A DNA stretch of 62,522 nucleotides, the filler included. It is 4 parts of 4 records of this genome, joined end to end, with 100 filler letters (N's around TTAATTAATTAA, not from the genome) between each part and the next. Parts side by side here need not be neighbours in the genome. Positions count along the whole stretch, not along the records: positions 1 to 19,051 come from SRR20825006_680; 3 more parts are not named here. One strand, given 5' to 3'. The position numbers and the translations under genes were made by a program. Each line of letters starts with the position of its first letter. Within the stretch, counting starts at the first letter, position 1. The notes beneath the pieces were generated by a model. The model was not told where the DNA came from, searched no databases, and saw nothing but the letters and a program-made list of their open reading frames with translations. Positions 1 through 37,666 of this stretch are shown here, in pieces.

Positions 1-149
1 TCGAAAAGACACAAACCAAACCTACCAACGCCATGCTTCAGTCCCTTTTTGAATTGGAGCCGCAAGAGGAAAAGCCCCTGATTATAGAAAAGAAATATGC
101 TCAGGATTCAGAGCAACCTCGATTTCGAGAAAAACAAAAAGAAGATTAA
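1..149 (+). CDS. C-terminal fragment of a BfmA/BtgA-type mobilisation protein (5' end outside the window)
   Basis: Manual translation from nt 3: EKTQTKPTNAMLQSLFELEPQEEKPLIIEKKYAQDSEQPRFREKQKED*, stop at 147-149, directly upstream of the relaxase. Confidence 0.6.
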   Translation, partial: EKTQTKPTNAMLQSLFELEPQEEKPLIIEKKYAQDSEQPRFREKQKED

Positions 150-165
150 CCTAAAAACGATTCCT

Positions 166-1197
166 ATGTACATCAGCATATCACCCCAAAAGCAAGGCGG
201 CAATTACCCGAAAAGTTCTGGTGGGTTTGTAGCTTATCTGGAAAAGGAAAATGAAGAAGACATCAATATGCAAAAAGAGTTCTTTTTTAATCAGGACCAA
301 GAGCATATCACTCCGGAACAAGTAGTCCAAGCAATAGATCAAAACACAGCCAAACTGAAAGCTAAAGAGCCCAAGTTTTATTCTATTACCCTAAGCCCAT
401 CACAACGTGAGCTTGGTCAACTTCAAAACAGTAGTAAAGATTTAAAAGCATATACGCGTGCCGTGATGAAGGATTATGTGACTTGTTTTAATCGAGAGCT
501 TGATGGGCGTCCAATCGCCATTAAAGACATATTGTATTTTGCTAAAGTAGAACATCAGCGTACCTATAAAGGTACAGATATACAAGTTCGAGAGAATCAG
601 CCTTACGCTACAAAAATTCTTAAGCTCCATTCGGAAATTCGTAAAATTAGGCAGGGGAGTGCCCAGGGAAGGATTCGAGATCTAGCTAGGGAAATTGCAC
701 TATTAGAACAACAAGCCCCACATCAGCAAAAGGGCAAGCGTATCGTTCAAGGTATGCCTAAAGCCGGAAATCAAAGTCATATTCATATTATAGTGAGTAG
801 AAAAGATGCATCCAACACCATCAGCCTTTCTCCGGGAAGTAAATACAAAGCTTCTCAAACTAAAATTAATGGAAGACTCATAAAACGTGGTTTTGACAGG
901 GATGCATTTTATTCCAAAGCTGAAAAATCCTTTGACAGGCTGTTTTCCTATCAACGTAATTATGCAGAATCCTATAAAGCGCGAAAAACCTTTATTAAAA
1001 ATACCAACGCCTATTTTGCTGCCCTGCTGAAATTACCGGCTAATGAAAAGGCATTGGCATTTAAACTTATGTCGAAATCGGGTCTGCCTAGGGTCTCCGG
1101 TATACCTGTTTCTCAAGCGCAACTAGCATTGCGAATATTTAAGCGGCTTAGACGCGGGGCTGAAGTAGCCATCAAATCAAGTTCCATCGGAATCTAA
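166..1197 (+). CDS. MobB-family (DUF5712-like) relaxase
   Basis: HUH motif HIHIIVSR, N-terminal YLEKEN, FYSITLSPS. ATG at 166 (MYISISPQK) preferred because the ORF-track start overlaps the upstream gene. Confidence 0.85.
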   Translation: MYISISPQKQGGNYPKSSGGFVAYLEKENEEDINMQKEFFFNQDQEHITPEQVVQAIDQNTAKLKAKEPKFYSITLSPSQRELGQLQNSSKDLKAYTRAVMKDYVTCFNRELDGRPIAIKDILYFAKVEHQRTYKGTDIQVRENQPYATKILKLHSEIRKIRQGSAQGRIRDLAREIALLEQQAPHQQKGKRIVQGMPKAGNQSHIHIIVSRKDASNTISLSPGSKYKASQTKINGRLIKRGFDRDAFYSKAEKSFDRLFSYQRNYAESYKARKTFIKNTNAYFAALLKLPANEKALAFKLMSKSGLPRVSGIPVSQAQLALRIFKRLRRGAEVAIKSSSIGI

Positions 1198-1201
1198 GAC
1201 T

Positions 1202-2785
1202 ATGGAATTCGATCAACTACAGTCGTTCCTTTATTTTGGTATGGGTACTTGCCTTTGCTTTGTAGTGCTATTCAAGCTTACCAAATATGCTTTTAGCATT
1301 AATGCTGTGCTGGTGCTTGCCCTACTGTACTATCTATCCTCCGAGGTGCCGTGGGTTGATTTGGTTATGTACTTAGGGTGTCCTTTGATGCTGATCAATA
1401 CTGCACTATATGTTTATTTAGATGCTTCTGAAAATTCCCATAAAATAGACCCGCGTTATACCGTGACCTTCAAAACAAATCAAGGTAAACTTCAATTGCA
1501 TAATATTATACGGGGCGTTTCAATTATTGGAGCTGCAGGTAGTGGTAAAACCGAAAGTGTAGTATATGGATTTTTACGGCATTTCCAAAAAGAAGAGTTC
1601 TGCGGGGTGATTCACGATTATAAAAATTTTGAACTTACAGAAATGGCTTATCCACTTTTTACAAATGGATCCATTCCTTTCAAAATAATTGCTTTCGACA
1701 GGATATTTCATAAGGTTAATCCAATTGCTCCGCGCTATTTGGAAAATGAGGAAAGTGTGAACGAAGTGGCCAAAGTACTTATTGAAAATTTACTGGAACA
1801 GCGAGAAAGCGGCGTAAGTGGAACTACTAAGTTTTTTAATGATGCTGCGGAAGGTTTGATCGGTGGGCTCATCTGGAAACTCAAAATGGATTATCCTAAC
1901 TTATGCACCCTACCGCATCTGATCGCAGTGTATCAATATTTAGATACCGAGAGTCTTATTGGGTTTCTAAAAACCAATACAACCTCAAGAGCAATGGCTG
2001 ATGCCTTTATCAGTGGGAAAGATTCTGAGCGGCAGACAGCGGGTGTCAAGAGCACTTTGGCCAATGCGCTTAAACGCATCAGTACCCAAAGCATTTTTAT
2101 GGTATTGTCTGAAGATGAAGTACCGCTTAATATTAATAGTACATCAAATCCTTGTGTGCTATCCGTAGTCAATAACCCAAAATACGAGGCTGCCTATGCA
2201 CCGGTTATCGCCACGATTATACATACGATAACCAAACAAATGAGTGTACACGGACAACGCCCTTCTTTTATGATGATGGAAGAAGCGCCAACCATTCGCT
2301 TATTAAATATGCATCGAATACCGGCCACCTTACGCAGTTATGATATTGCAACCCTCTATGTGATGCAAGACAAAATTCAAAACGATATGATGTATGGAGA
2401 TAAAGCGAGTAGAGCCATACTTAGTAACCTTTCCTACCAGTTTTTTGGCAAAGTCAATGACCCCGATACCGCCAAGTATTATGAGCGCTTTTTTGAGATC
2501 ATAAAAAACCCAACCAAAAGTATCAGTAAGGCTGCTAATCTTTTTAAATCTGACACCCGAATAACCAAAGGGGAACGGGAAGTCTCTAAACGAAGAGCTG
2601 AAATTTTCTTTAAACTTAAACCGGGAGAGTTTATCAGTTTTGCGGATGGTAAGGATAAGAAAGTACAATTCAAACGACCCGATATCTTACGGGAACTACC
2701 TACCCAAAACAAACCTTGTACGACAGAAGAATTGAACGCTAATTTTGAGCGGATTTATAAAGAGATTGAAGCTATATTTCAGTAA
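1202..2785 (+). CDS. Type IV coupling protein (MobC/VirD4-like)
   Basis: N-terminal TM helices, Walker A GAAGSGKT, HDYK, Walker-B-like MMMEEAPT; follows the relaxase. Confidence 0.87.
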   Translation: MEFDQLQSFLYFGMGTCLCFVVLFKLTKYAFSINAVLVLALLYYLSSEVPWVDLVMYLGCPLMLINTALYVYLDASENSHKIDPRYTVTFKTNQGKLQLHNIIRGVSIIGAAGSGKTESVVYGFLRHFQKEEFCGVIHDYKNFELTEMAYPLFTNGSIPFKIIAFDRIFHKVNPIAPRYLENEESVNEVAKVLIENLLEQRESGVSGTTKFFNDAAEGLIGGLIWKLKMDYPNLCTLPHLIAVYQYLDTESLIGFLKTNTTSRAMADAFISGKDSERQTAGVKSTLANALKRISTQSIFMVLSEDEVPLNINSTSNPCVLSVVNNPKYEAAYAPVIATIIHTITKQMSVHGQRPSFMMMEEAPTIRLLNMHRIPATLRSYDIATLYVMQDKIQNDMMYGDKASRAILSNLSYQFFGKVNDPDTAKYYERFFEIIKNPTKSISKAANLFKSDTRITKGEREVSKRRAEIFFKLKPGEFISFADGKDKKVQFKRPDILRELPTQNKPCTTEELNANFERIYKEIEAIFQ

Positions 2786-6024: not shown

Positions 6025-6047
6025 TACGCCTCCAAAAATAGCTAAAT

Positions 6048-6076
6048 AAAAAGGCTGTCAATGACAGCCTTTTTTT
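6048..6076. terminator. Bidirectional intrinsic terminator
   Basis: AAAAAGGCTGTCA-A-TGACAGCCTTTTT between the convergent SDR and katE genes. Confidence 0.85.
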
Positions 6077-6094
6077 ATGGAATATTTGGATAAG

Positions 6095-8233
6095 CTAAAC
6101 GGCAATACCTTCAACCTTATCTTTACGCTCCCAGTTTCTGTGTTGCGCTATTGCATCGATAAATGCTTTTGGCTTAGCATCTATGAATACGGCTTTATCT
6201 TTTTCATAGTGCTTATATGCACTGTGTTTTAGAAGTGCTTCGCCTTCGCCCAAAGCAGCAACAGCTTTACAATGTTTCAGAGTTTCATTGACAAACTTTT
6301 GAAATTTAGCTTTTGCTTGCAAGCTTTTTACTGCTTTTTGACCTCCCGTAATTAATACCGCATCAAAAAGCACACTTTCTGTTGTTAAAATGGCCGCATC
6401 AACCTCGTGTTTCATACCTTGATCACAAGTTATTGAACCTCCGTGCGGTGCTACTATTTTAACCATTGCTCCAGCTTGCTCTAAAGCAGTTTTGTAAGGT
6501 TCAAAACGTTTCATATCGAACTGGTCTGCAGCTAAAAATGCTATTTGTCGTGTTGCAATACTGTCAAATTTAGTATTGGCTTGACTTAAACTTGAATCTT
6601 TATCTAGATATTGTTTTTTAGAATTAGGCTGAAATTTTTCAATGTCTGCATCTGCACCAATCGCTTGATTGACGGGTTCATCTATTTTCTTCGGTACGGT
6701 CAATCCTAAGCCGTCAGCAACTTTCTTGGCCAATTCTTGGTCAATCTGGTTGATGATCCATAACATACGCTCTTGAATATGTTTATGATTGCATTTACCA
6801 AGTTCAAAAGTATAGGCATCAGCTACGTGTTGTTGCTCCCAAGAAGATAAACTGCGGTAGAAAAGAGCAGGTTGAGAGTAGTGATCGCTAAAGCTAGCAC
6901 TGCGTCCTCGTATCTTGTGCGCATCAATACGCTCTTGGTGGTGCGTGTATCCGCCTTCAGCCATTTTAGCCAAATGCGGACAACCCATGCTTAAGGAATT
7001 AGGGAAGTAAGCAGTTTGACCTTTAGGAATTTCGGTTTGCATATGTCCATCCCTTTGATTGTTATGATGTGGTACTACCGAACGATTGATGGGAATTTGA
7101 TGAAAATTAGGACTTCCGAGTCGCGATAATTGGGTGTCTCTGTATGAGAACAAACGTCCTTGTAATAACGGATCATTAGTAAAATCGATACCCGGGATTA
7201 TATGACCTGGAAGAAAAGCTACTTGCTCGGTTTCTGCAAAGAAATTTTCAGGATTTTTATTTAAAGTCATTTTCCCAATTATTTCTACTGGAACCAATTC
7301 TTCTGGAATCAATTTGGTAGGGTCGAGCAGGTCAAAATCATATTTGTGCTCATCTTCTTCCGGAACCACTTGAATTCCAAACTCCCATTCAGGATATTGA
7401 CCGGCCTCGATAGCTTCCCAAAGATCTCGACGGTGAAAATCTGAATCAGCACCATTAATTTTAACGGCTTCATCCCAAGTTACGGAATGAACTCCTAGCA
7501 CTGGTTTCCAATGAAACTTCACAAAATGAGATTTACCGTCTTTATTAATAAATCTAAACGTATGAATACCAAAACCTTCCATCATACGATAACTTCGAGG
7601 AATGGCCCGATCACTCATTACCCAAATATGATTGTGTAAGGTTTCAGTCGCCCTAGAAACAAAATCATAAAACGTATCGTGAGCCGAAGCTGCTTGGGGA
7701 ATTTCATTATTGGGTTCTGGTTTTACCGAATGAATTAAGTCAGGAAATTTCATCGCATCCTGAATAAAGAAAATGGGCATATTATTTCCAACTAAATCCC
7801 AAGTTCCTTCATCTGTATAAAATTTTACAGCAAAACCTCGTACATCGCGTGCTAAGTCTGGAGAACCCTTAGAGCCTGCGACGGTAGAGAATCTTACAAA
7901 CACAGGAGTTTTACGTTTAGTATCGGTAAAAAGTCCGGCCTTAGTATACTTCTCTATACTTTTATAGAGTTCAAAATACCCGTGAGCTCCGCTACCGCGT
8001 GCGTGAACAATTCGTTCTGGAATTCGCTCATGATCAAAACTGGTGATTTTTTCGCGTAATAAGAAATCTTCCAGTAGCGTAGGGCCACGTTCTCCGGCCT
8101 TTAGTGAATTGTTGGTGTCATTGACTTTAAGCCCTTGGTTGGTGGTCATGACCTGATCCTGATAATCCTTGGTGGATTGCTCGAGTTGATCAATTTTTTT
8201 TGATTTAAACTCGTTAGTTTGCTTTTTACTCAT
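6095..8233 (-). CDS. katE: Large-subunit catalase HPII
   Basis: [24 protein letters not shown] and a C-terminal GATase/DJ-1-like domain; probable ATG at 8233 (MSKKQ). Confidence 0.95.
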
Positions 8234-8360
8234 AGCATCAATATTGGTTAGTAACTGTTTAAAATTAGACAGTTGCATCAATACATATGCTATCTAAAAG
8301 GTTAAAGTATTTCTATAGGTTAATTAAAATTATCTTAAATCATAAGTTTGCAATCGTAAT

Positions 8361-8768
8361 TTATAATAGAGCTAAGGCAGTAGCTGCAAAAAGAATATGT
8401 GCGATCAATAAATTGAGGTAATAACGATGTCTGTCAAAATTTTTTGAAGGCTTGGAAAACCAAAAAAGAAGTATCCACATCAAGATTCCTAAACCACCTT
8501 CTAACCCTCCGAATATTAAAATTTCTAAATACTGAGGAAACGAAAAATAGTTCCTAAGCAGATCGATTAAGTATAGAAAACCAATTCCGGTAATATAATG
8601 GGTGATCCATCCGTAAGGGGAACGCCAGCCATCTCTTTTAAAAAGCAGTCGGTTTAGCCAATAAGGTTCCACTAAATTTTGATGCACTAAACAACTAAAG
8701 CCATAGCTGAATAAAGTCATTACTGTAGTACTTGCTAAGGTGATCAAAAATAAGGAGACGATATTCAT
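8361..8768 (-). CDS. Hypothetical membrane protein, about 4 TM
   Basis: Hydrophobic segments, GWITHY and LIAH; ATGA overlap with the upstream gene. Confidence 0.7.
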   Translation of the reverse strand: MNIVSLFLITLASTTVMTLFSYGFSCLVHQNLVEPYWLNRLLFKRDGWRSPYGWITHYITGIGFLYLIDLLRNYFSFPQYLEILIFGGLEGGLGILMWILLFWFSKPSKNFDRHRYYLNLLIAHILFAATALALL

Positions 8769-9316
8769 AACTTGGTTTGTTTTTCTTCCTCTTCAATTTC
8801 CTCCTCAGATATCAGGTAGTGATCCTTACCCAAACCTACAATTGTTATAATATTGGTGACAGTGGTATAGAGTAAGAGCACAACAGTAACCATCATACCG
8901 CTTAGTAAAGAGGATGAAAAGAGTGTTGCCCAATAAATATATTTAAACCAAAAGGTGGGTACTTGCTCAGATTCTGTAATTGGAATATTAAAAATCTGAA
9001 AAAGCACTAAGGCAAAAATAAATAGTACAGTATCTAATTTTGCAATATTCGCGACCTGCTTATAATGCGCTTTCTTTAATGTAGATCTTGAACTTGTGCT
9101 GATACCCAAGAGCGTGAGCAATAAGGTTAAAATGGTAGCTGAGCCCAAAACGATGGTATTGCACAACATATTAATACCAGAAAGAGAGGCTTCAATAAGC
9201 ACTTTACCTTCATAACCGCTTATATTTCCTAATACAAAAACTGCAACTAAAAGAAATACAAAGGTGATAAAACCACCCATTAGAGCACGTTTGTTTGTAC
9301 TGATAAAGTTTTTCAT
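8765..9316 (-). CDS. Hypothetical membrane protein, about 4 TM, acidic tail
   Basis: Four hydrophobic segments; 4-nt overlaps with both neighbours. Confidence 0.75.
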   Translation of the reverse strand: MKNFISTNKRALMGGFITFVFLLVAVFVLGNISGYEGKVLIEASLSGINMLCNTIVLGSATILTLLLTLLGISTSSRSTLKKAHYKQVANIAKLDTVLFIFALVLFQIFNIPITESEQVPTFWFKYIYWATLFSSSLLSGMMVTVVLLLYTTVTNIITIVGLGKDHYLISEEEIEEEEKQTKL

Positions 9317-9576
9317 CTTGTATACGATTTATCGTATTTCAATTTGGTGTAAACCATCATTCCATTAAATAGAAAAGACAGCCCATTGGTTATAATTATA
9401 GGCCAATCTTCTTTTAGTATGCCATAGATGGTCCAAGACCCTACACCTATTAATAGGCACATAAACATTGGTAAGGATATGTCTTTGGCAGATTTAGTGC
9501 GTAACACTTTATACACCTGAGGGAGTACTGCTATTGTCGTAAAAATGCTAGCTGTCGTTCCTACAATTGTTTCCAT
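9313..9576 (-). CDS. SemiSWEET / PQ-loop transporter
   Basis: 87 aa, 3 TM, LPQVYK, KDIS, W-x-x-YG, PIIITN. Confidence 0.9.
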   Translation of the reverse strand: METIVGTTASIFTTIAVLPQVYKVLRTKSAKDISLPMFMCLLIGVGSWTIYGILKEDWPIIITNGLSFLFNGMMVYTKLKYDKSYTR

Positions 9577-9584
9577 GACCTTGT

Positions 9585-11012
9585 CTAATATTCCTGATCA
9601 AAATTCTTAAATTGATAATCCTCTTGGTACTCAGCAATACTTAAATTTTGAGCACGCTCAAACAAATGGGCTTCAGTTTCAAAGAAATGCATCATATAAC
9701 CAGCGGTATTCACAAATAAGACCGCATCTCCGATTTCCGGAAGCTGTGGTAACATGATTTTGCGTTTCAATAAAATATCCCGCTCCAGACAATAGGCTCC
9801 TGTAAAATATACACGCACAGGTTCAGCATTAGATTTTCGATGTTGATAGCTTACAAAAGGGTCTAAAAGAAAATCGGCACTTGAACTTTTTAATTGGGAC
9901 ATATTCATTTCTAAACCTATAAGGTGATTTCCTTCTGCATCTATTTTGCGATGCGCTACACGGGCTACAGTAATTCCTACTTGATCTAGTAAACTACGCC
10001 CCGGTTCTAGACGTAATTCAATACTATTGGCTTGTATTCGTTGAACAACAGTTTTATTACTTTGATTAGGCGTTTCCAAAATTTCTTTGAGAAAATTAGC
10101 CTTAGTATTTTCATTGTAATAAGGGTACGTTTGCAAATGTCCTTCGAGTTCCCCGTTGCGCATAGTAAAACCTAGACCGTCGTTATTGTAAGTAATAGAA
10201 GGATGCTGTTCTAAGACAGCCTGTTTTAATACGTGTTGAAACGAATCCCATTCCTGTTGAGATTGCAGATAGTTCATCAATATTCCTCCACCTATATCAA
10301 TAAAAGAAATAGGTAATTCAAGAGGTTTCAATATTTCGATAAGATCTAGGGTTTGATGAAGCGCTGTTCCACGTTGAGCGGTACTATAACCATCTAAATG
10401 AAAATGAAAACCCTCTAAACGAATTTTACCTAAAACTGTAGCATCTTTAAAGTAACGCTCTATAAATTGAGTAACGGCTGTGATATCAAACCCGAAACGA
10501 CTTTTTAATTTAGACCCTTGAAAATCAAATCCTGAAATGCGTATACCAATTTTTACTTTTTTATTAAGTTGAGTAGAGAGCGCCAGAACCTGATCGAATT
10601 CATCTTGATTATCTATGATAAGTAGAACCTCTTGCTCAATAGCAGTTTGCAACAATTTTTTATTCTTAATGGCAGCAGTAGAGATAAGTTTGTCTGAGCT
10701 GATATTAAGATCTAAACATTGTTGAAGTTCGGGGTAGCTGGCGGTATCAATACCTATATTCATTTGGGCTGCGGCAGGGATGAGATTCTTAAATTTATTT
10801 GCTTTTCTGGCAAAAAACAATTGATATTTGATCTGATAGGTATCTAAAATTTTCTGATACTCTTCTATATTTTCTTGAAATGCTTTTAAATGATGCAGAT
10901 TTATTGGCGAACCATATGCCTCTAAGAGGTGCTCTAGAAGGTCAAAATTGCCTATAAGTTGATGCATCCATTGAGAAGTAATAGGAGTTAGTGCAGGTAA
11001 ATTAGGATTCAT
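9585..11012 (-). CDS. Fold-type III PLP enzyme (Y4yA / diaminopimelate-decarboxylase-like)
   Basis: FFARKANK (PLP Lys), SRFG, HFHLDG, DIGGG, EPGRSL, GAYCLE. Confidence 0.85.
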   Translation of the reverse strand: MNPNLPALTPITSQWMHQLIGNFDLLEHLLEAYGSPINLHHLKAFQENIEEYQKILDTYQIKYQLFFARKANKFKNLIPAAAQMNIGIDTASYPELQQCLDLNISSDKLISTAAIKNKKLLQTAIEQEVLLIIDNQDEFDQVLALSTQLNKKVKIGIRISGFDFQGSKLKSRFGFDITAVTQFIERYFKDATVLGKIRLEGFHFHLDGYSTAQRGTALHQTLDLIEILKPLELPISFIDIGGGILMNYLQSQQEWDSFQHVLKQAVLEQHPSITYNNDGLGFTMRNGELEGHLQTYPYYNENTKANFLKEILETPNQSNKTVVQRIQANSIELRLEPGRSLLDQVGITVARVAHRKIDAEGNHLIGLEMNMSQLKSSSADFLLDPFVSYQHRKSNAEPVRVYFTGAYCLERDILLKRKIMLPQLPEIGDAVLFVNTAGYMMHFFETEAHLFERAQNLSIAEYQEDYQFKNFDQEY

Positions 11013-12765
11013 AAGTAAGGTTGTAATTTTTGATTTCTTGAACGTTTTTTACAGTGTTACGCGCCCAGGCACTTGACGTATCGTTATGTGCTCTAGAAAG
11101 CGAGTCATTATCAAATAGTATATGTTCTGTGGGTGTACCATATAAAACGATGTTTTTTTCTATGGCTCCGGATGATGAAATTGGGTGCCCTTCAATGGTG
11201 CAATGTAAATCTATCCAATCTTGCTCTTGAGGGGAAGAGAACAAAGAGGTCGTGCTATTTCCATTAAAAAGTATTGCGGATGATTTGGTGAATTTACGGG
11301 GTATTCGCGCATCAATCATAAAGTCTGCATCCTGCTTACGATCATTTAATGTAACCGTCCACCCACGTTTGGTAGATACTGTACTCGGATGTCTTGCAAA
11401 TGAAAAATTGAGAATTCCGGCCTGATGCAGGGCGAGCATTTTTTTAATATTTTCAATTGGAGGCCCATATGCAATCCGGTTGAAAAGTCCGAAATAAGTA
11501 TCTTGAAACCGTTTTCTTGATTTAGAAGTTAGAAGCGCTGTTTGGTAAAGTCTATTGAACTCTTTAGAAAGACTCCTCCACGCACTTGCTGCAGCTACCC
11601 ATGGACTTTGCGCTTGATCCAATTCTTTAATCCAAAAATTCCAATAGTTTTCAGGTGAATTAGCATAATTAAGATTAGAATGTGCTTCGGGGTAGAGGAG
11701 TTCATCTGCCTTAAAGGGAGCTATTGCTAAATTCAATCTATGAAAATCAGTCTTTGCTGCGTTAAAGTGTGCTACATCAGAAGGTGTATACTCAAACCCA
11801 TACATTTTAAAAAGCATCTGATAATACGCTGATTCAATGTCTAGTTTGATCCAAGGCAGTATGTCCCTCTCAAAATCAACACGAGTATGCGAATTTAAAA
11901 TTGAATCGATCTTATTTTTTAGAAAATGACTAGTTGAATTTAGCATATCTGCTTGATCCCCTCTTGGTACAATAGGAATACCAGAACGTGAATATGCAAT
12001 TATCAATGCCGGCTCATTTCCAGATTTTAAATAATCGAAAGCCCCTGATGTATTTTTTTTAAATACCCCTCGACGCCCTTCAGTCAACTCAAGAATGGCA
12101 TCTATGGCTGTAAGTCCCATACCCTTACACAACACGGTGGATTGAGGGGGAATAGGATTAAGGTTTTCGCAAAGTGGATAGACAAAGGGGATATAGCATT
12201 GTGATTCTTTCTTTTGCTGCTTACAGCTTTGAATTGCAGGGCTGTGGCCTGTTGTAATTAAAAGCGATTGAAAATGTATATCCTTGCAACAAGTGTTTTC
12301 TGTCAGCAATTTATAACCCTCTGTTTCTTTCAGGATATCAGTGACACAAGTAGTGTGTAGTTGAATATTAATTTTAATACGTGCAGCGCTAAGAATACGT
12401 TCAAAATAATACTGTAAATACCTTCCCACTACTGCTCTAGGAGCTACCTGTGAATCAACTTGCTCTTTAGGGAGATTATACGTTGAACTTAACCAATCAC
12501 TAAAAGATTGAATAGGGATAAGCGGTTGCAAGGCATTTGAAGGACTACAAGAAATATATTTATTGGGATAGTTCATCAAAAGATATTCGGGCTGATTAGG
12601 ATCATAGATCCACCCACTTGCAAAATTTTCAGTTTCGTTGAACAAATGAATAGTTATAGCACTACAATTATCGCAACGATCAAGTTCAGCTACGAGCCTT
12701 TCAAATCCATAAAAGCCTTTAGGTCCTAAACCTATGATTCCTATGTGAAAATCAGCGAACTCCAT
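11002..12765 (-). CDS. FAD/NAD(P)-binding flavoprotein resembling CreE/FzmM-type N-oxygenases
   Basis: IGLGPKG..FERL, QPEYLLMN, PRAVVGRYL, GMGLTAID..LTEGRRG, SRSG, GPP, DARIP, GTPTE. Confidence 0.75.
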   Translation of the reverse strand: MEFADFHIGIIGLGPKGFYGFERLVAELDRCDNCSAITIHLFNETENFASGWIYDPNQPEYLLMNYPNKYISCSPSNALQPLIPIQSFSDWLSSTYNLPKEQVDSQVAPRAVVGRYLQYYFERILSAARIKINIQLHTTCVTDILKETEGYKLLTENTCCKDIHFQSLLITTGHSPAIQSCKQQKKESQCYIPFVYPLCENLNPIPPQSTVLCKGMGLTAIDAILELTEGRRGVFKKNTSGAFDYLKSGNEPALIIAYSRSGIPIVPRGDQADMLNSTSHFLKNKIDSILNSHTRVDFERDILPWIKLDIESAYYQMLFKMYGFEYTPSDVAHFNAAKTDFHRLNLAIAPFKADELLYPEAHSNLNYANSPENYWNFWIKELDQAQSPWVAAASAWRSLSKEFNRLYQTALLTSKSRKRFQDTYFGLFNRIAYGPPIENIKKMLALHQAGILNFSFARHPSTVSTKRGWTVTLNDRKQDADFMIDARIPRKFTKSSAILFNGNSTTSLFSSPQEQDWIDLHCTIEGHPISSSGAIEKNIVLYGTPTEHILFDNDSLSRAHNDTSSAWARNTVKNVQEIKNYNLTYES

Positions 12766-13742
12766 TATTTTAGATGACTTTGAACCCAGTTTTGATTATA
12801 TAGCGTATCAAGATAACGCTCTCCTCGATCGCAAAGAATTAATACGCTTTTACTATTCTCAGGCAGCTGCTGCTGTAATTTTAAAAAGGCGCTTAAGACT
12901 GCTCCTGAAGAACCGCCAGCAAGAATACCTTCGGTATCTAAAAGCTTATGACATCCTTCAACACATTCCATATCTGAGATATGACACGCACTTTCAATAG
13001 CTTCTCTTCTCAAAAAATGGGAGGGTAGTCCTGCACCATGGCCTGGAATATGACGTTCTTGAGGTTTATGACCAAAAAGAACGCTTCCGACCGCATCTAC
13101 CGCAATCATCTTTGTATTCAGTCCGTGCGCTTGAATGTAATTGGCACACCCCATCAGGGTACCGCAAGTGCTGGTTGCGGCGAAAACATAATCTACTTCC
13201 GGTAGCTCTTGATATATTTCTCGCATCGTACGATGATGCGCTTTCGGATTGGATTCATTTTGATATTGATTCGTCCATACCGAATTCGGGATTTCCAGAA
13301 GTAACTCCTGAATTCGAGCAAGTCGTGCCCCCAGATAGCCGCCATTAGCAATAGGTTTTTTTACTTTATTGATTTTAGCCCCATATGCGTTTAATATCTT
13401 CAATGTATGCGGATTGGCTTTTGGATCAACTACGATAATCAGAGGTATGTTATAATAACAACATACTTGTGCCAAACCTACAGCCATATTTCCGCTACTA
13501 CTCTCAATCAAGGTAGTATCTTTTGTAAAATGACCTTTGCGAATTCCTTCTTCAACTATTGCTAAACTAGTGCGATCTTTAATACTTCCACCAGGATTGG
13601 CCATTTCCATTTTAGCGTAAACTTCACGACCTGTAATAGAAGATAGTCGCTTGAGGTGTATGAGTGGAGTGTTCCCGATAGTATCAAGCACGGAGGATTT
13701 CTCAATTCGACGTAGGGGCTGTGTGGGCAATTGCGTGTACAT
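12765..13742 (-). CDS. SbnA-like PLP-dependent beta-substitution enzyme (cysteine synthase fold)
   Basis: NPGGSIKDR, ESSSGN (SbnA-type rather than CysK TSGNT), GGYLGAR, NQY, STCGT. Confidence 0.85.
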   Translation of the reverse strand: MYTQLPTQPLRRIEKSSVLDTIGNTPLIHLKRLSSITGREVYAKMEMANPGGSIKDRTSLAIVEEGIRKGHFTKDTTLIESSSGNMAVGLAQVCCYYNIPLIIVVDPKANPHTLKILNAYGAKINKVKKPIANGGYLGARLARIQELLLEIPNSVWTNQYQNESNPKAHHRTMREIYQELPEVDYVFAATSTCGTLMGCANYIQAHGLNTKMIAVDAVGSVLFGHKPQERHIPGHGAGLPSHFLRREAIESACHISDMECVEGCHKLLDTEGILAGGSSGAVLSAFLKLQQQLPENSKSVLILCDRGERYLDTLYNQNWVQSHLK

Positions 13743-13915
13743 AGGAATTATGGTTAGTTATATGGTTGTTTACTTAAAATTATATTTCGCATATTTTGTG
13801 AACTAGCAGAATAACAAAAATTAACATTAACCCGTTAAAATGCTCTAAAACCTAGAATTAGCTATCATTAAGAACTCTAATGTTTATAATTTTTAGCAAT
13901 AATTATTAAAATGGA

Positions 13916-14500
13916 ATGTATATGGAAAATTGGCTTGTTGTTTCAGAGACTACAATAATCAAAGTGGTACTGTCAGTAATTTCTATTTTTACTGTGATGA
14001 TTGTAATTACGCGTATCAATGGACTGCGTACATTTGCCAAAATGTCGAGTTTTGATTTTGCTGCGACCATTGCGATTGGTTCCGTACTCGCCTCAATTGT
14101 TTTAAATACAAATCAATCACTAGTTAAGGGGACAATTGCGCTCGCTTGTATTGTGGCTTTTCAGAGTATTTTTTCGTGGTTAAGGCGAAAATCGAAAACG
14201 ATGCAACATTTAATATCTAACGATCCTGTGGTATTAATGTATCAAGGAGAGATTTTCTACGAAAATTTAAAGAAAACTAATGTTGGTGAAGATGACCTTA
14301 TTGCTAAATTGAGAGAGGCCAACGCATTAAATTTTAAAGAAGTGTATGCCGTAATTTTAGAAACTACAGGTGATATGTCTGTATTACACGGACCCGATCA
14401 TCAAAGCATCGATAAAAAAATTTTAAAGGGAATAAAAGGTTGGCCTATTTCTAGTTCTGATGATACTGTAGCTAAGCCAAATAAAAATTCAAATTTGTAG
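13916..14500 (+). CDS. DUF421/YetF-family membrane protein
   Basis: G-x-RTFAKMSSFDF, IAIGSV, LREAN, ILETTGDMSV. Confidence 0.85.
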   Translation: MYMENWLVVSETTIIKVVLSVISIFTVMIVITRINGLRTFAKMSSFDFAATIAIGSVLASIVLNTNQSLVKGTIALACIVAFQSIFSWLRRKSKTMQHLISNDPVVLMYQGEIFYENLKKTNVGEDDLIAKLREANALNFKEVYAVILETTGDMSVLHGPDHQSIDKKILKGIKGWPISSSDDTVAKPNKNSNL

Positions 14501-14529
14501 GAAGCCTTATAAGTTACCGATTAAGTCCC

Positions 14530-15120
14530 TCAATGTTTTATTAGTTGACGAAAAGTCAAACTTATACGAGGGGTTGTAACCTTTTTAGTTTTGGAAATGT
14601 TGTGTTTCCAAAACTGTTGTGTTTCATCTTTCATCACTAACAGACTCCCAGCGTGCAGCTCAAAACTCACTTTATTTTTGGTTTCATTATGCTTCAGATT
14701 GAATTTGCGTGTAGCTCCAAAACTTAAGGTTGCAATAGTACCGTTTGCAATTAAATCACGCTCATCATCACTATGCCATCCCATAGCAGTAGTTCCATCA
14801 GGGTAATAGTTTAATAGGCAACTGTTAAATGTTTCGTGAAGCTGATCTTCCAATTTGGCTTTCAAATTCAGCAAATCTTGATTCCATATTTCGCACTGGC
14901 GCTTGGTACCTGAATAGGTATAAGTTAAGCCTGAATCTCCAAATAAAGCAGTTTTTCTTTGGGTGTAAATTGTCTTACCAAAAATTACAACTCGATCAGA
15001 TTGCCAAGGAATTGTATTGGAGAAAACATCCATATAATATGCTTGCATTGTGACGTCAATGAATGAAGGATCAAATGCCACGCAACCATCATAAGGCAAT
15101 AGGTTTTCTGTATCTTCCAT
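14530..15120 (-). CDS. AlkB-family 2OG-Fe(II) dioxygenase (ALKBH2/3-like)
   Basis: NSCLLNYY, WHSDDE (HxD), WKH, RISLTFR. Confidence 0.9.
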   Translation of the reverse strand: MEDTENLLPYDGCVAFDPSFIDVTMQAYYMDVFSNTIPWQSDRVVIFGKTIYTQRKTALFGDSGLTYTYSGTKRQCEIWNQDLLNLKAKLEDQLHETFNSCLLNYYPDGTTAMGWHSDDERDLIANGTIATLSFGATRKFNLKHNETKNKVSFELHAGSLLVMKDETQQFWKHNISKTKKVTTPRISLTFRQLIKH

Positions 15121-15244: not shown

Positions 15245-16099
15245 TCAATTCGGATTATTAATAAAACGATGTGCGATTTTTAATTCCAGATCTCGTTCCC
15301 CTTGAGCCTCGTGTAATTGAACCACAACCCGGTTATTATTACTTAAGGAAAACTTTGAAAGCACATAGACAAACCGGACGCGTTCTCCTTTTTTAATCTT
15401 GTTGGGAAACTGATGTTTATACAGCGGTTGTTTTACAATGCGCTGGGATGATTTTCGTTTTCCTTTTGCCCGTGATTGCACACCTATCTCCAAAAAGTCC
15501 ACATCATAATCCAATCCGGATTTATTTTCAATCTCAAAAACGAAATACAGTTGCTCCCTATCAAATACAATATTTTTAGTTGTTAGTTTTATGCCATAGT
15601 TACGTTTGATTAAATGCCCTAAACCTTGTTTACTTTTAAGCAGTTTAGCACTAAGGAATTTTAAGTTGGACAGGTTAACTGCTGCAGTTGGTTTTAGAGT
15701 TATAGGCGCAAGAGTATCTTTTTTCCGATCTTCTTTACCAATGCTGTTTTGTGATTTTATAAAATAATTGATTTGAGTGAGTTGGGCTTTGTATTTAATG
15801 ATATAGGAGTAGATACTTCCATCAGTGGTGATCACCAAAAGATTGCTTTCCTTTCCGGGTTGGGCCTGTAGCAATCCCAAATATTGTGGGATATCCCGAT
15901 TAAAACTGAATACAAAAGATGCTGAGCCTACAATACCCTGACGAATAGGTTTTGGAAAAAATAGCGCTACATTTTTCGTTTCATTGGCATACAGGGTGTC
16001 CAAAATTATTGGATTCGAATTAGGTATGGTTTTAGCCTGAAGTGATACGCTGAATAGAACAAGTGTGCTTATCGCTATTAAATACTGGATGGTTTTCAT
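15245..16099 (-). CDS. traN: Conjugative transposon TraN-like (DUF4138) protein
   Basis: Signal peptide, NLLVIT, N-x-S-x-LDYD, RFVYVL-x-KF; last gene of the tra run. Confidence 0.75.
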   Translation of the reverse strand: MKTIQYLIAISTLVLFSVSLQAKTIPNSNPIILDTLYANETKNVALFFPKPIRQGIVGSASFVFSFNRDIPQYLGLLQAQPGKESNLLVITTDGSIYSYIIKYKAQLTQINYFIKSQNSIGKEDRKKDTLAPITLKPTAAVNLSNLKFLSAKLLKSKQGLGHLIKRNYGIKLTTKNIVFDREQLYFVFEIENKSGLDYDVDFLEIGVQSRAKGKRKSSQRIVKQPLYKHQFPNKIKKGERVRFVYVLSKFSLSNNNRVVVQLHEAQGERDLELKIAHRFINNPN

Positions 16100-16108
16100 A
16101 ATTGCAGA

Positions 16109-17038
16109 TTATTTGATTTTTAAGAGCATACGGTAGTTGTTGAGTACGGTAACTTTTACATTACGGTTATCAATACGAAGCAGTTGTGAAATTCCGCTGA
16201 CTTGAGGTAAACTTGGGATATTGATGTCTTGAAGCACATCGTCCATAACCTCCCTAGTGGCTTGGGCTCTAAAATTATTTTCTACATAAATTCCTTTTAA
16301 ACCGTCCTGCAAGTCAAAAGCTTCTAATACAACAGGATGGTGATTGATCTGCTCAATTTTAATTAATGCTCTATTGGGTTGAAAGCTTATGGTTCCAAAC
16401 ACCTTAGTGTTTTTAGGAAGACGTGTTCCTTTTATGGTTATGGCCTCTACCAAGCGAAGCTGAATACGCGTATTGGCTTTAACTAATTGATCCCCATCCA
16501 CAACCGCCTGTACTAGATCATCACTGCTAGGATCCAATGCAGTTGCTTTAAGGCTTGTGGAGGTCGCCGCAGCAAAAAAGAGCTGGTGCTCTAACCCCAA
16601 TTCCTGATGGATCACCTGACGTTCTTGTTGTTGTATTTCGGGACTTTGTTCAGCGGGTATAGCTTTTTGATTTGAAGTCCTTATAGAGGTCTTGGATTCT
16701 TGATCTCCATAGACTTTTTGGTTTGCACGATAGATACTGTCAACCACCCGCTGTTTTTCTTGCTCAGCATACTGCGGATTGTAATACCCCAAAGAATCCA
16801 ATAAGTTTTCATCATAAATACTGGGTGCTGTTTGAGGGTTAACTTTTTTTAGATCGTTCAAAGCATCGATTTTCGATTCGTACTCCAATTGTTCCTGTTC
16901 AAGTATTGGAATTTCAGTTTGGGTGAGTTGTTCTTCGGACTCATCCTCCATGGAAAGCGAGATTCCATAGCAAACCAGAAATAGTACGATCACAGCAAGA
17001 ACAGCTGCAAATACAATTTTGTTTTTTTCAATTTTCAT
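16109..17038 (-). CDS. traM: Conjugative transposon TraM
   Basis: N-terminal TM, coiled coil, C-terminal RIQLRL...DLQDGLKGIYV. Confidence 0.8.
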   Translation of the reverse strand: MKIEKNKIVFAAVLAVIVLFLVCYGISLSMEDESEEQLTQTEIPILEQEQLEYESKIDALNDLKKVNPQTAPSIYDENLLDSLGYYNPQYAEQEKQRVVDSIYRANQKVYGDQESKTSIRTSNQKAIPAEQSPEIQQQERQVIHQELGLEHQLFFAAATSTSLKATALDPSSDDLVQAVVDGDQLVKANTRIQLRLVEAITIKGTRLPKNTKVFGTISFQPNRALIKIEQINHHPVVLEAFDLQDGLKGIYVENNFRAQATREVMDDVLQDINIPSLPQVSGISQLLRIDNRNVKVTVLNNYRMLLKIK

Positions 17039-17055
17039 AAGCTTGGTTTTAAGAA

Positions 17056-17670
17056 TTACTCTTGGGAATCGATTTTTTGCAGATGCTGTTCAAAATAGTT
17101 TGTGATAAGCAGGCCGTGGGGATTATTAGGGAAATTACGTGCTACAGAAATTAAGTTTCCTGTGGTCTGCAATTGGTACGTATCAGTTACGCTTCCCCGA
17201 TTGATCTCGAAGGTAAGGGTTGTTTTAAATTGAATAGGAGTAGCGTCTAGATCAATTTGAGAGTCTATTTGAAGCACGCGTTGTACTAAAGAATATTGGA
17301 TGAGTCGATTGTAGAGTCCATCAGCACGCTTTTGCTGATAGACTTGATCTACTGAACTATTACCCAGCCATAATGCTTTATCCAAATTTTTGGTGTAATT
17401 GCTCGCATCGATGTTATAGAAATACCGATGAAACAGGTCAAGGTGAGCCAGCGCCTCAACTTCTAGATGCTCTCTTTCAATCGTTAATCTCAAGGGGATC
17501 ACTTCACCGGTAGTACTGATTGCAAAAGCAGAGGAAGCAAACTTTTGATAACTAGAATACACCATCCACCCCGAGAACAGCACACAGAGTGTGGTAGAGA
17601 CTACACAGCTATAAACAATGAAGCGATTGGTTTTTAATACAGCATAAATGTTTGAATAAGGTGTTTTCAT
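17056..17670 (-). CDS. traK: Conjugative transposon TraK (VirB8-like)
   Basis: Single TM, FHRYFY, RNFPNNPHGLLI. Confidence 0.85.
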   Translation of the reverse strand: MKTPYSNIYAVLKTNRFIVYSCVVSTTLCVLFSGWMVYSSYQKFASSAFAISTTGEVIPLRLTIEREHLEVEALAHLDLFHRYFYNIDASNYTKNLDKALWLGNSSVDQVYQQKRADGLYNRLIQYSLVQRVLQIDSQIDLDATPIQFKTTLTFEINRGSVTDTYQLQTTGNLISVARNFPNNPHGLLITNYFEQHLQKIDSQE

Positions 17671-17680
17671 AGTATTGATT

Positions 17681-19051: not shown

Positions 19052-19151
19052 NNNNNNNNNNNNNNNNNNNNNNNNNNNNNNNNNNNNNNNNNNNNTTAAT
19101 TAATTAANNNNNNNNNNNNNNNNNNNNNNNNNNNNNNNNNNNNNNNNNNNN
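19052..19151. other. Artificial contig linker
   Basis: N44-TTAATTAATTAA-N44 (stop codons in all six frames). Confidence 0.98.
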
Positions 19152-35155: not shown

Positions 35156-35172
35156 GCATTTGGGGGTCTAGT

Positions 35173-35967: not shown

Positions 35968-35976
35968 CCCTTAGGC

Positions 35977-36047: not shown

Positions 36048-36092
36048 ACGCCAATTTCTGGGGTCCTGATATAAAGCTAACTGCTTGGACCA

Positions 36093-37187: not shown

Positions 37188-37189
37188 GC

Positions 37190-37648: not shown

Positions 37649-37666
37649 GCTGCCTGCTCCCAAAGT

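Follow-up and report, generated by a model that had tools for sequence, protein, structure and literature searches.

What compound is made by a module of three tightly packed genes in a marine flavobacterium, for which we found no published product in the literature? The window that we analysed (the whole stretch of DNA, 62,522 nucleotides) carries these genes on the minus strand, and the ORF listing confirmed all three, together with the overlaps of 1 nt (position 12765, SbnA and flavoprotein genes) and 11 nt (11002-11012, flavoprotein and decarboxylase genes) that the initial annotation had described. The trio and the genes around it are the following:

12765..13742, minus strand: SbnA-family PLP beta-replacement synthase gene (325 aa; TIGR03945 and PDB 5d84)
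11002..12765, minus strand: PF13454 class-B flavin monooxygenase-like protein gene (587 aa; PF13454 and 8cp2)
9585..11012, minus strand: Y4yA-type fold-III PLP decarboxylase gene (475 aa; PF02784)
9313..9576, minus strand: SemiSWEET/PQ-loop transporter, candidate exporter (87 aa; NF037968, 99.5 bits, cut-off 80)
8765..9316, minus strand: membrane protein of 183 aa (4-nt overlaps on both sides; 4-5 hydrophobic segments)
8361..8768, minus strand: membrane protein of 135 aa (3 hydrophobic segments)
6095..8281, minus strand: large-subunit catalase, HPII type (728 aa; Pfam Catalase, 604 bits)
13916..14500, plus strand: YetF/DUF421 membrane protein (PF04239), divergent from the trio
97..2785, plus strand: DUF5712 protein and type-IV coupling protein, left-hand conjugative-element genes (PF18976, TrwB/TraG-D families)
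15245..17670, minus strand: Bacteroidetes conjugative-transposon TraN, TraM and TraK, right-hand conjugative-element genes (TIGR03780, TIGR03779 and TIGR03781, matched under their cut-offs; Pfam DUF4138 and Transposon_TraM above theirs)

The coupled run is longer than the trio itself. The SemiSWEET, the two membrane-protein and the catalase genes follow downstream on the same strand, spaced in order by an 8-nt gap, two 4-nt overlaps and a 79-nt gap, and the run thereby extends past positions 9585..13742, covered by the initial annotation, as far as the catalase at 6095..8281. Metatranscriptome contigs from three studies match parts of all three trio genes with 95-100% identity, and the same contig set covers parts of the genes for the 183-aa membrane protein and the catalase (95-100%); these are matches to contigs only and may include DNA carry-over. 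Pfam scans of 47 window ORFs, in which short ORFs and a few no-hit ORFs were only partly included, contained no member of the OCD/SbnB, Lyase_1/CreD, NRPS or IucA/IucC families. SbnB, CreD, NRPS and NIS genes were also absent from the contig and from the neighbourhoods of 12 related genome loci, in agreement with the orphan status first proposed for the trio.

The SbnA ORF belongs to the PALP family and scores 405.9 bits against TIGR03945 (SbnA family, equivalog level; cut-off 349.95), its best PDB match being S. aureus SbnA 5d84 (E 2.3e-80). Lys47, the PLP lysine, and Arg132, Tyr152 and Ser185 of 5d84 correspond to K55, R140, Y160 and S191 of the window protein, and all four are retained in the 17 of 17 flavoprotein-coupled SbnAs examined; Arg132, Tyr152 and Ser185 are described as the residues for selective O-phosphoserine binding (PMC12414870). 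The third gene encodes a protein with the PF02784 fold-III N-domain, so that both PLP-enzyme assignments of the initial annotation stand. Homologues of this decarboxylase (50-67% identity) carry the NCBI name 'Y4yA family PLP-dependent enzyme'; its model (pLDDT 84.5) has DokD, DAPDC and FslC as top folds, and K70, H203, H205, D239, GGG 241-243, E336, R339, C408, D412 and Y439 are invariant across 16 sequences. Judged from its sequence, it is a member of the uncharacterised "Y4yA" group. For the flavoprotein, of the FAD-NAD(P)-binding family PF13454, the sole PDB match is 8cp2, an aspartate N-hydroxylase of the FzmM type (family profile, 330.6 bits over the full length), which is also the top Foldseek match of the predicted structure (pLDDT 83.1; TM 0.77), followed by SidA, KtzI, DesB and BVMOs.

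The initial annotation had named conservation of the trio as a unit as a point on which its reading could fail. The SbnA gene adjoins the flavoprotein gene in 57 loci (13 genome and 44 metagenome loci), which are not phylogenetically independent and some of which, among the metagenome loci, may duplicate genome loci. The decarboxylase gene comes next in all 46 loci with at least 1.5 kb of downstream DNA, and the order SbnA, flavoprotein, decarboxylase is kept in 13/13 genome loci and in every metagenome locus of sufficient length. Moreover, SbnA and flavoprotein are fused in 6 of the 57 loci, and among the 120 long SbnA relatives listed, 27 clusters combine PF00291 with PF13454, compared with ∼22 that combine PF00291 with PF02423 (SbnB). 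Thirteen of 401 sampled Flavobacteriaceae genomes have a TIGR03945 match over cut-off, and the same 13 have a flavoprotein orthologue. The trio is also plasmid-borne in other phyla. It is a real, conserved and horizontally mobile unit.

The genome search for sbnB suggested earlier gave no match over the TIGR03944 cut-off in any of the five trio genomes tested (99-100% completeness). The reading that we favour, as a tentative first choice, is that the SbnA-type enzyme makes N-(2-amino-2-carboxyethyl)-glutamate (ACEGA), that the flavoenzyme, standing in for SbnB, acts on the bridging amine of this compound by oxygenation or cleavage, and that the decarboxylase then yields an ethylenediamine-type amine. 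From its family and conserved residues, the first enzyme would join O-phospho-L-serine to the amino group of L-glutamate, giving ACEGA as an opine-like secondary amine. For the flavoprotein, gene position, fusions and fold suggest a class-B monooxygenase of the FzmM fold that depends on NADPH and O2 and has a remodelled substrate chamber; it would N-oxygenate ACEGA at the bridging nitrogen. If the nitrone or imine so formed were hydrolysed, 2-oxoglutarate would be set free together with diaminopropionate, either unmodified or N3-hydroxylated; otherwise, the N-hydroxy-iminodiacid might stay intact. Finally, as its family and partners suggest, the Y4yA-type enzyme would take the alpha-carboxylate off the 2-amino-2-carboxyethyl unit, and the end product would be ethylenediamine, N-hydroxyethylenediamine or N-(2-aminoethyl)-(N-hydroxy)glutamate. 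Candidates for its export in this window are the SemiSWEET transporter and the pair of small membrane proteins encoded downstream. The hedged route of the initial annotation (beta-substitution, N-oxidation or oxidative cleavage, and a decarboxylation that leaves a small amine or an N-hydroxy compound) matches this reading and is thus supported.

The closest known logic is that of SbnA/SbnB in S. aureus, which provide L-2,3-diaminopropionate for staphyloferrin B. Both systems start with an SbnA-family member over cut-off, both couple a second enzyme tightly to it (SbnA being fused to SbnB or to the flavoprotein), and both include a fold-III decarboxylase; SbnH decarboxylates citryl-diaminopropionate. 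However, the trio has a class-B flavin monooxygenase in the SbnB place and no NIS synthetase, and most of its neighbourhoods lack siderophore uptake genes; its neighbours are catalase and stress genes. In actinomycete [S,S]-EDDS and EDHA biosynthesis, Spohn et al. (in 2016 and 2018) are said to have described a DAP-decarboxylase-like enzyme that turns a diaminopropionate unit, made by SbnA/SbnB homologues, into an ethylenediamine unit by decarboxylation. These pathways differ from the trio by their SbnB homologue and further C-N forming enzymes, and we know of no flavin monooxygenase in the SbnB place in them.

The last two steps might take place in the other order, the decarboxylase converting ACEGA, whose free alpha-amino acid end suffices for it, into N-(2-aminoethyl)glutamate, and the flavoenzyme then N-oxygenating the primary amine so formed, in the way that FzmM-type enzymes treat aspartate, to give a hydroxylamine, an oxime or a nitro group. 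To our knowledge, the class-B N-monooxygenases of solved structure have primary amines as their substrates, and action of the flavoprotein on a secondary amine would be by analogy with FMOs. Relatives of the flavoprotein elsewhere adjoin a CreD-like lyase or a nitronate monooxygenase, and known PF13454 enzymes are reported to oxidise a primary amine repeatedly (PMC10404684). Nevertheless, we consider this order unlikely: the gene order is the same in every case, and SbnA is joined to the flavoprotein (6 fused loci, 27 fused protein clusters) and not to the decarboxylase, which suggests that the product of SbnA passes straight to the flavoenzyme. In a soil clade that is sister to the trio flavoproteins, the gene adjoins an opine dehydrogenase gene in 21/26 loci and an arginase-family gene in 18/26; we count these pairings as evidence linking the family to secondary amines, and the opine dehydrogenase pairing speaks, for that clade, against a simple break of the same C-N bond. 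On a Deefgea plasmid, sbnA and sbnB occur with a PF13454 protein of the CreE-like clade (26% identity to the window's), and therefore in at least one relative the flavoenzyme works alongside SbnB, not instead of it, perhaps acting on free diaminopropionate.

Equally unlikely, in our view, is that the SbnA-like enzyme uses something else than glutamate as its nucleophile (ammonia, a diamine, a different amino acid or a hydroxylamine that the flavoenzyme supplies), which would give another beta-substituted alanine and, after decarboxylation, an N-(2-aminoethyl)-X compound, e.g. an unusual polyamine or metallophore precursor. CysK/SbnA-fold enzymes take many nucleophiles. The Sinorhizobium fredii NGR234 cluster y4yB-y4yA-y4xP-y4xO-y4xN-y4xM, whose Y4yA-type decarboxylase is 27.5% identical to the window's (96% coverage), and the Proteus mirabilis proteobactin (pbt) cluster combine this enzyme, as in the trio, with a PLP enzyme of CysK/SbnA type and a third one acting on secondary amines (PMC11026637); what they do in rhizobia is still called enigmatic in PMC3973906. 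Unlike the trio, both have an opine dehydrogenase, an IucA/IucC (NIS) synthetase and an MFS exporter, and larger aminocarboxylates are therefore built there. However, the CysK-like enzyme in them shares only 27% identity with the window SbnA and lacks equivalents of Y152 and S185. The window protein exceeds the SbnA equivalog cut-off, and, outside the trio, it comes closest to the SbnA domains of fusions with SbnB (P0267 and P0268; 49-50% identity), the CysK-like partners in rhizobial and mycobacterial modules reaching only 27-30%.

The flavoprotein might also be a true CreE/FzmM aspartate N-hydroxylase of the aspartate-nitrosuccinate pathway, its nitrosuccinate, 3-nitropropionate or nitrite then being combined with the SbnA product. 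It shares with CreE/FzmM the Pfam family, the fold (8cp2 being its only close PDB relative), both dinucleotide-binding motifs (GLGPKG 12-17 and GMGLTA 215-220, with N65) and an equivalent of the catalytic Asn62. However, identity is only ∼20-25%, and just one of five aspartate-contacting residues is identical (R577, as R558), with R13 replaced by K, R276 by N or S, R416 by N and N413 by K, where an N413E change is reported to have abolished hydroxylation (PMC10404684). The trio flavoproteins have a PLP synthase and a decarboxylase as their partners, no CreD/FzmL-type lyase being present in the window or in the 12 related loci, and in a quick tree they form a clade (only 89% SH-aLRT, with the mutual branching of the three clades left unresolved) apart from the CreD-paired and nitronate-monooxygenase-paired proteins. 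This makes the aspartate route very improbable, and the CreE/FzmM-like label given at first holds for family and fold (PF13454, 8cp2) but not for orthology, the protein being by sequence a distinct clade. A housekeeping cysteine synthase and diaminopimelate decarboxylase around an unrelated flavoprotein, as some public annotations of homologues ('cysteine synthase A', 'diaminopimelate decarboxylase', 'alanine racemase') would have it, is more improbable still, since a separate LysA over cut-off exists in 5/5 trio genomes beside separate CysK-like genes, the trio decarboxylase scores only 86-105 bits there (108 in the window) against the lysA cut-off of 297.9, CysK-level matches occur in 400/401 Flavobacteriaceae genomes whereas SbnA-level matches and the trio occur in only 13, and the trio is fused, overlapping and plasmid-borne. 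The separate LysA and CysK-like genes also speak for the initial annotation on its other possible point of failure, that the enzymes behave as plain cysteine synthase and LysA.

As for the role of the product, we counted neighbours up to 7 kb away from the flavoprotein gene, using the 44 loci of at least 9 kb: the YetF/DUF421 gene was present in 17, catalase in 15, the 135-aa membrane protein gene in 8, and the SemiSWEET and 183-aa membrane protein genes in 7 each; neither membrane protein had a Pfam, NCBIfam or PADLOC match. The catalase (1012 bits against NF008422, under the cut-off of 1102), found also ∼5 kb past the trio on a Chondrinema plasmid, is a frequent neighbour and not a core part of the module. 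Together with the stress neighbours, it suggests a product for oxidative or metal stress protection, or a cover for H2O2 leaking from the flavoenzyme; from the gene neighbourhood, a role in stress or chelation may be envisaged.

Y4yA-type decarboxylases elsewhere adjoin a CysK/SbnA-like gene and an SbnB-like ornithine cyclodeaminase or opine dehydrogenase gene. Uncharacterised four-gene modules on Rhizobium and M. avium plasmids combine a cysteine-synthase-like enzyme, ornithine cyclodeaminase, Y4yA and a MATE exporter, and an Agrobacterium plasmid has the first three, with no MATE gene in the stretch shown. Like the trio, they have three slots (synthase, amine-processing enzyme, Y4yA decarboxylase) and no NIS synthetase; however, their middle slot is an SbnB-like NAD enzyme and their proteins are 27-30% identical to the window's. 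Metal-related genes surround them, for an iron ABC transporter, a metal-sensing regulator and a multicopper oxidase. The Y4yA group thus has sister modules, so that the trio is one version of a broader family of modules and not a one-off. Most likely, it follows the diaminopropionate logic of SbnA/SbnB in modified form, and its product is a two-carbon diamine, possibly N-hydroxylated.

The three genes of interest run in the same direction within a longer set of closely spaced genes. The coding features of this region are as follows.

97–2785: DUF5712 and type-IV coupling protein, conjugative-element genes on one side of the block
6095–8281, minus strand: large-subunit catalase, 79 nt past the gene of the 135-aa membrane protein
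8361–8768, minus strand: membrane protein of 135 aa, no family match, 4-nt overlap with the 183-aa gene
8765–9316, minus strand: membrane protein of 183 aa, no family match, 4-nt overlaps
9313–9576, minus strand: SemiSWEET transporter, 8-nt gap after the decarboxylase gene
9585–11012, minus strand: fold-III PLP decarboxylase, 475 aa
11002–12765, minus strand: PF13454 flavoprotein, 587 aa
12765–13742, minus strand: SbnA-like synthase, 325 aa
13916–14500, divergent from the trio: YetF/DUF421
15245–17670: TraN, TraM and TraK, conjugative-element genes on the other side of the block

The overlaps of 1 and 11 nt that the initial annotation had described within the trio are found again in the ORF list of the window. 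To judge from gene spacing alone, the trio run would form an operon. Neither promoter-like sites (24 versus 29.6 in shuffled sequences, with models whose coverage excludes Bacteroidetes promoters) nor terminator-like sites (4 versus 6.5) were in excess. No Rfam family matched anywhere in the window, and PADLOC assigned no defence family to the trio or the small neighbouring proteins.

The trio belongs to a block of ∼10 kb (5176–15120) that also contains an SDR, the catalase, the membrane proteins, YetF and an AlkB-like oxygenase, and that is bracketed by conjugative-element genes (97–2785 and 15245–18523). Since such genes stand on both sides, this stress island, trio included, is apparently carried as cargo by an integrative conjugative element in the window strain. 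Among named relatives, Leeuwenhoekiella palythoae DSM 19859 is the nearest, with a flavoprotein of 97% identity; it was the sole near-identical locus returned by a contig scan with this single protein as query. The TraN and TraM proteins of the window have no BLAST match in that locus (L032).

Two other regions of the window deserve mention. The stretch 33800–51100 has a G+C content of 50–52% (33–42% elsewhere), and its housekeeping genes (ABC-F, PepA, LptF, LptG, LptD, PdxA, KsgA, Gmk, YicC, MltG/YceG and FabF) are arranged in a manner resembling Proteobacteria. It lies between Bacteroidetes genes (PorZ and glutamate dehydrogenase; a T9SS sorting-domain protein). A chimeric assembly or the insertion of a large piece of foreign DNA may account for it. 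At 19104–20534, an ORF of 476 aa matches only the first 198 positions of a class-I tRNA synthetase catalytic domain and perhaps represents a synthetase gene that is truncated or in fragments, adjoining conjugative-element genes.

In a sample of 401 Flavobacteriaceae genomes, an orthologue of the flavoprotein (E <1e-50) was present in 13, at 32–97% identity. The order SbnA–flavoprotein–decarboxylase is kept in all 13, and the first two genes are fused in 2 of them. The SbnA model TIGR03945 exceeded its cut-off in exactly the same 13 genomes, every time within the trio. A metagenome scan with the family alignment as query gave 80 loci. Over genomes and metagenomes together, SbnA adjoins the flavoprotein in 57 loci (fused in 6), a count that probably includes some genome loci a second time from metagenomes and in which related loci are not independent observations. 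The decarboxylase is present in each of the 46 trio loci with at least 1.5 kb downstream. Beyond this family, the trio was found on a plasmid of Chondrinema litorale (Cytophagales), with a catalase ∼5 kb beyond it, on five plasmids of Sulfitobacter pontiacus (Alphaproteobacteria) and on pTpau01 of Tsukamurella, where the flavoprotein stretch is poorly annotated. The trio is widespread in marine Bacteroidota and also resides on plasmids of Alphaproteobacteria and Actinomycetota. We are highly confident that it constitutes a biosynthetic unit that is conserved, mobile and different from housekeeping genes, and the natural SbnA–flavoprotein fusions speak for a coupling of both proteins.

The first enzyme scores 405.9 bits against TIGR03945, the SbnA equivalog model (cut-off 349.95), stays far under the cut-offs of the cysteine synthase, cystathionine synthase and cysteate synthase models, and matches S. 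aureus SbnA (5d84) with an E value of 2.3e-80. According to PMC12414870, which cites Kobylarz et al., Arg132, Tyr152 and Ser185 of SbnA are key residues for selective O-phospho-L-serine binding. Together with the PLP lysine Lys47, they correspond to R140, Y160, S191 and K55 of the window protein, and equivalents of all four are kept in 17 of 17 flavoprotein-coupled SbnA sequences. The window protein is 49–50% identical to SbnB-fused SbnA domains and 44–57% to many flavoprotein-coupled ones; in this comparison, rows P0279 and P0300 were disregarded, because the wrong end of these fusion proteins (probably of reverse domain order) had been used, and the accompanying FastTree phylogeny carries no support values. 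Among the 120 long relatives listed, SbnA is fused to PF13454 in 27 clusters and to PF02423, the SbnB family, in about 22. In the same material (proteins P0274–P0325), many Paenibacillus SbnA proteins bear a fused N-terminal PF27279 domain, and other fusion partners include TauD (PF02668), condensation (PF00668), alpha/beta-hydrolase and ABC-transporter domains.

The flavoprotein matches PF13454 with 94.6 bits, and with a 20-member family profile the sole PDB match was the aspartate N-hydroxylase of Streptomyces sp. V2 (8cp2/8cp5; 330.6 bits, positions 8–580, hence full-length). For the AlphaFold model (pLDDT 83.1), 8cp2 was again the best Foldseek match (TM 0.77, E 5e-31), followed by ornithine, lysine and putrescine N-hydroxylases and by Baeyer–Villiger monooxygenases. 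The dinucleotide motifs for FAD (GLGPKG, 12–17) and NADPH (GMGLTA, 215–220) are present, as is an equivalent of the catalytic Asn62 (N65, within LLMN). By its modelled fold, which has the three domains of class B, the protein is a class-B NADPH/O2 monooxygenase. ESM Atlas placed it in generic 'FAD/NAD(P)-binding' clusters only, and the public names of its homologues go no further than 'FAD/NAD(P)-binding protein'.

Its substrate is probably not that of the structural relative. In 8cp2, L-aspartate is held by Arg13, Arg276, Asn413, Arg416 and Arg577, and a change of Asn413 to Glu abolished hydroxylation (PMC10404684). This entry chamber of CreE/FzmM is not conserved in the trio flavoprotein: in an alignment-dependent comparison, the five residues become K16, N or S, K401, N404 and R558, so that only the Arg577 equivalent is identical and Asn413 is replaced by Lys. 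Moreover, a CreD/FzmL-type lyase adjoins a Streptomyces relative of the flavoprotein, whereas no such nitrosuccinate lyase (Lyase_1) adjoins the trio in the window or in 12 related loci. In a quick IQ-TREE phylogeny, the trio flavoproteins form a group of their own (SH-aLRT 89), apart from a clade of soil sequences (SH-aLRT 100) and a CreE-like, CreD-paired set (SH-aLRT 100); the branching order of the three groups is not resolved, and the Sulfitobacter protein sits on a long branch of uncertain place.

The wider PF13454 family occurs in varied settings. Of the 47 Flavobacteriaceae genomes with a match of any kind, those other than the 13 above carry a second group of ∼580 aa, 22–26% identical to the trio protein, which is also found as an additional copy in three or more trio genomes (among them G001, G198 and G227); in five of its loci (L045–L049), the contexts are variable and contain neither SbnA nor decarboxylase. 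The soil clade, a set of metagenome loci (L075–L127; for example, L085, 3263–13411), has flavoproteins of 28–31% identity that are the nearest outgroup of those of the trio. Their neighbours are an opine dehydrogenase (21 of 26 loci), an arginase-family protein on the opposite strand (18), a multicopper oxidase (15), a glyoxalase (11) and a large outer-membrane beta-barrel protein, with neither SbnA nor the decarboxylase. On a plasmid of Bacillus thuringiensis israelensis (L149, 2728–6923), a PF13454 protein adjoins a LysR regulator and a nitronate monooxygenase; the latter pairing is seen on five B. thuringiensis plasmids and would fit 3-nitropropionate production with self-protection. On a Streptomyces angustmyceticus plasmid (L148, 3227–8572), an acyl carrier protein, a TrpB-like PLP enzyme, a PF13454 flavoprotein and an AMP-binding enzyme stand in a row, so that here, too, this flavoprotein family is paired with a PLP enzyme of beta-replacement type.

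The third enzyme matches PF02784, the fold-III N-domain, with 80.8 bits, and reaches 108 bits against the LysA model TIGR01048 (cut-off 297.9). The PLP lysine and the HxH, GGG, EPGR and C-terminal Cys/Asp/Tyr motifs, whose roles in fold-III decarboxylases are generally known, are invariant in 16 orthologues and align to DAPDC, relative to which there is an insertion of ∼70 residues between GGG and EPGR. The best Foldseek folds for its model (pLDDT 84.5) were DokD (D-ornithine/lysine), DAPDC and FslC (N-citrylornithine decarboxylase). Homologues at 50–67% identity are named 'Y4yA family PLP-dependent enzyme' by NCBI; identity to Y4yA of NGR234 is 27.5% over 96% of the length, and no Y4yA model appeared in the NCBIfam scan.

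A CysK/SbnA-family gene adjoins the Y4yA-type decarboxylase in all seven plasmid records with annotated surroundings, trio plasmids among them, a count that excludes one region cut by the record end and one without annotation; the trio loci show the same pairing in 46 of 46 cases. In the modules of other bacteria, the third enzyme is an SbnB-like ornithine cyclodeaminase in Rhizobium sp. CCGE532, on an Agrobacterium pAt plasmid and on pMAH135 of M. avium, the first and last of which also have a MATE exporter, and an opine dehydrogenase in the y4yA-y4xP-y4xO-y4xN-y4xM cluster of NGR234. The proteobactin cluster of Proteus is of similar make-up (PMC11026637), and the y4 genes have been called enigmatic (PMC3973906). 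A small 'ParB N-terminal domain' protein heads the modules of NGR234 (y4yB; L137, 7543–7971), Rhizobium (L138, 5403–5798) and Agrobacterium (L139, 5548–6009). SbnI of S. aureus, a free serine kinase supplying O-phosphoserine, has a ParB N-terminal fold, and by analogy the ParB-domain proteins of the Y4yA modules may have the same role; no such gene adjoins the flavobacterial trio.

Whole-genome checks covered five trio genomes, all 99–100% complete, one of which (G001) is the genome nearest to that of the window. SbnB (TIGR03944) exceeded its cut-off in none of the five, the best score being about 34 bits. Pfam scans detected no OCD, Lyase_1, NRPS or IucA/IucC families among 80 neighbouring ORFs from 12 genome loci and the 47 ORFs of the window, which for the window bears out the lack of SbnB, CreD, NRPS and NIS synthetase noted in the initial annotation. 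The locus differs from a staphyloferrin B-type NIS cluster, whose IucA/IucC synthetase is lacking among these ORFs of the window and the 12 related loci. A role in cysteine or lysine biosynthesis is ruled out, since a separate LysA is encoded elsewhere in five of five trio genomes (375–392 bits, against 86–105 bits for the trio decarboxylases) and nearly all genomes (400 of 401) have matches at the CysK level.

Most likely, the flavoprotein occupies the slot that is normally that of SbnB. It always adjoins SbnA and overlaps it, in genomes without SbnB; SbnA is fused either to PF13454 or to PF02423; the window SbnA is as close to SbnB-fused as to many flavoprotein-coupled SbnAs; the residues for O-phosphoserine are retained in the latter; and Y4yA decarboxylases elsewhere adjoin a CysK/SbnA-like gene and a third enzyme. 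One locus counts against a simple replacement. On a Deefgea piscis plasmid (L145, 3457–9402), sbnA, sbnB, a PF13454 flavoprotein, thrH (phosphoserine phosphatase/homoserine phosphotransferase) and a permease stand in a row, which suggests that some relatives of the flavoprotein act alongside SbnB, and the row may be a route to N-oxygenated diaminopropionate. The Deefgea protein is 26% identical to the trio flavoprotein and groups in the quick tree with the CreD-paired Streptomyces and nitronate-monooxygenase-paired B. thuringiensis proteins, among others.

With the flavoprotein in the place of SbnB, a three-step route can be proposed. From its family and residues, the SbnA-type enzyme is predicted to join O-phosphoserine and L-glutamate to N-(2-amino-2-carboxyethyl)-glutamate (ACEGA). 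ACEGA is an opine-like secondary amine, and a secondary amine linking two amino-acid-derived units is the theme common to the trio and the soil clade. Since the flavoprotein is by fold a class-B monooxygenase, we infer that it would N-oxygenate the bridging nitrogen. This could lead, via a nitrone or imine, to cleavage into 2-oxoglutarate and plain or N3-hydroxy diaminopropionate; alternatively, a stable N-hydroxy product could result. PLP decarboxylases require a free alpha-amino acid end, and the only such end of ACEGA and its derivatives is the 2-amino-2-carboxyethyl (diaminopropionate) unit. This, and the constant pairing of Y4yA proteins with SbnA/CysK-like synthases, suggests that the decarboxylase would convert that unit into a 2-aminoethyl unit. 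The same conversion is carried out by SbnH in staphyloferrin B synthesis and by a DAPDC-like enzyme in EDDS synthesis. Depending on the outcome of the flavin step, which decarboxylation might precede or follow, the route would end in ethylenediamine, N-hydroxyethylenediamine or a derivative of N-(2-aminoethyl)glutamate. The overall reading of the initial annotation is supported as far as in silico tests reach, and we give the specific three-step mechanism as a whole slightly less than an even chance. What we rate as new here is a variant of the SbnA/SbnB-type logic for diaminopropionate in which the middle enzyme is non-homologous and a siderophore synthetase is lacking. Our literature search, which left most subscription journals aside, found no description of the trio or its product, and an earlier description is possible.

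The neighbourhood gives some indication of physiology. Within 7 kb of the flavoprotein gene, in 44 loci of at least 9 kb, we found catalase in 15, YetF in 17, SemiSWEET in 7, the 183-aa membrane protein in 7 and the 135-aa membrane protein in 8; in one genome (locus L044), the catalase gene lies directly upstream of the trio on the same strand. Neighbours seen in single loci include AhpC/redoxin, a PhnB/glyoxalase-like protein, Hsp20, a ribosome hibernation factor, DUF2383, DJ-1, a general-stress pyridoxamine-oxidase-like protein, polyphosphate kinase and SDRs. These catalase and stress neighbours would be compatible with a product that protects the cell, or with the removal of H2O2 that the monooxygenase may leak. 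Metatranscriptome contigs from three studies match parts of all three trio genes, the 183-aa membrane protein gene and the catalase gene at 95–100% identity; these are assembled contigs in which DNA carry-over is possible, and stretches without contigs (for example, 11138–11819) are uninformative on expression.

A more far-reaching reading is that the flavoenzyme N-hydroxylates the bridging secondary amine to give an N-hydroxy-iminodicarboxylate or N-hydroxy-diamine, which would represent a new class of bacterial small-molecule antioxidant or metal chelator, co-transcribed with catalase and spread on conjugative elements and plasmids across phyla. Chemical precedents are the ligand of amavadin, N-hydroxy-iminodipropionate, whose functional group resembles that of an N-hydroxy-iminodicarboxylate, and the secondary hydroxylamines that cycle with nitroxides as radical scavengers. 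We consider this reading unlikely. If true, it would provide the first function for the long-enigmatic Y4yA family.

Should the main route hold, a flavin monooxygenase would for the first time stand in for SbnB next to SbnA, which would mean a new way either to diaminopropionate or ethylenediamine units or to their N-hydroxylated forms, and the reach of the FzmM/CreE family would extend beyond aspartate. The repeated linkage to catalase and general-stress genes points to a small molecule in the stress physiology of marine bacteria, and the compactness of the module, with three and sometimes two genes, makes it easy to express. For the Y4yA decarboxylases, unexplained since the symbiotic plasmid of NGR234 was sequenced and also present in the proteobactin cluster, the 2-amino-2-carboxyethyl unit constitutes a testable substrate hypothesis.
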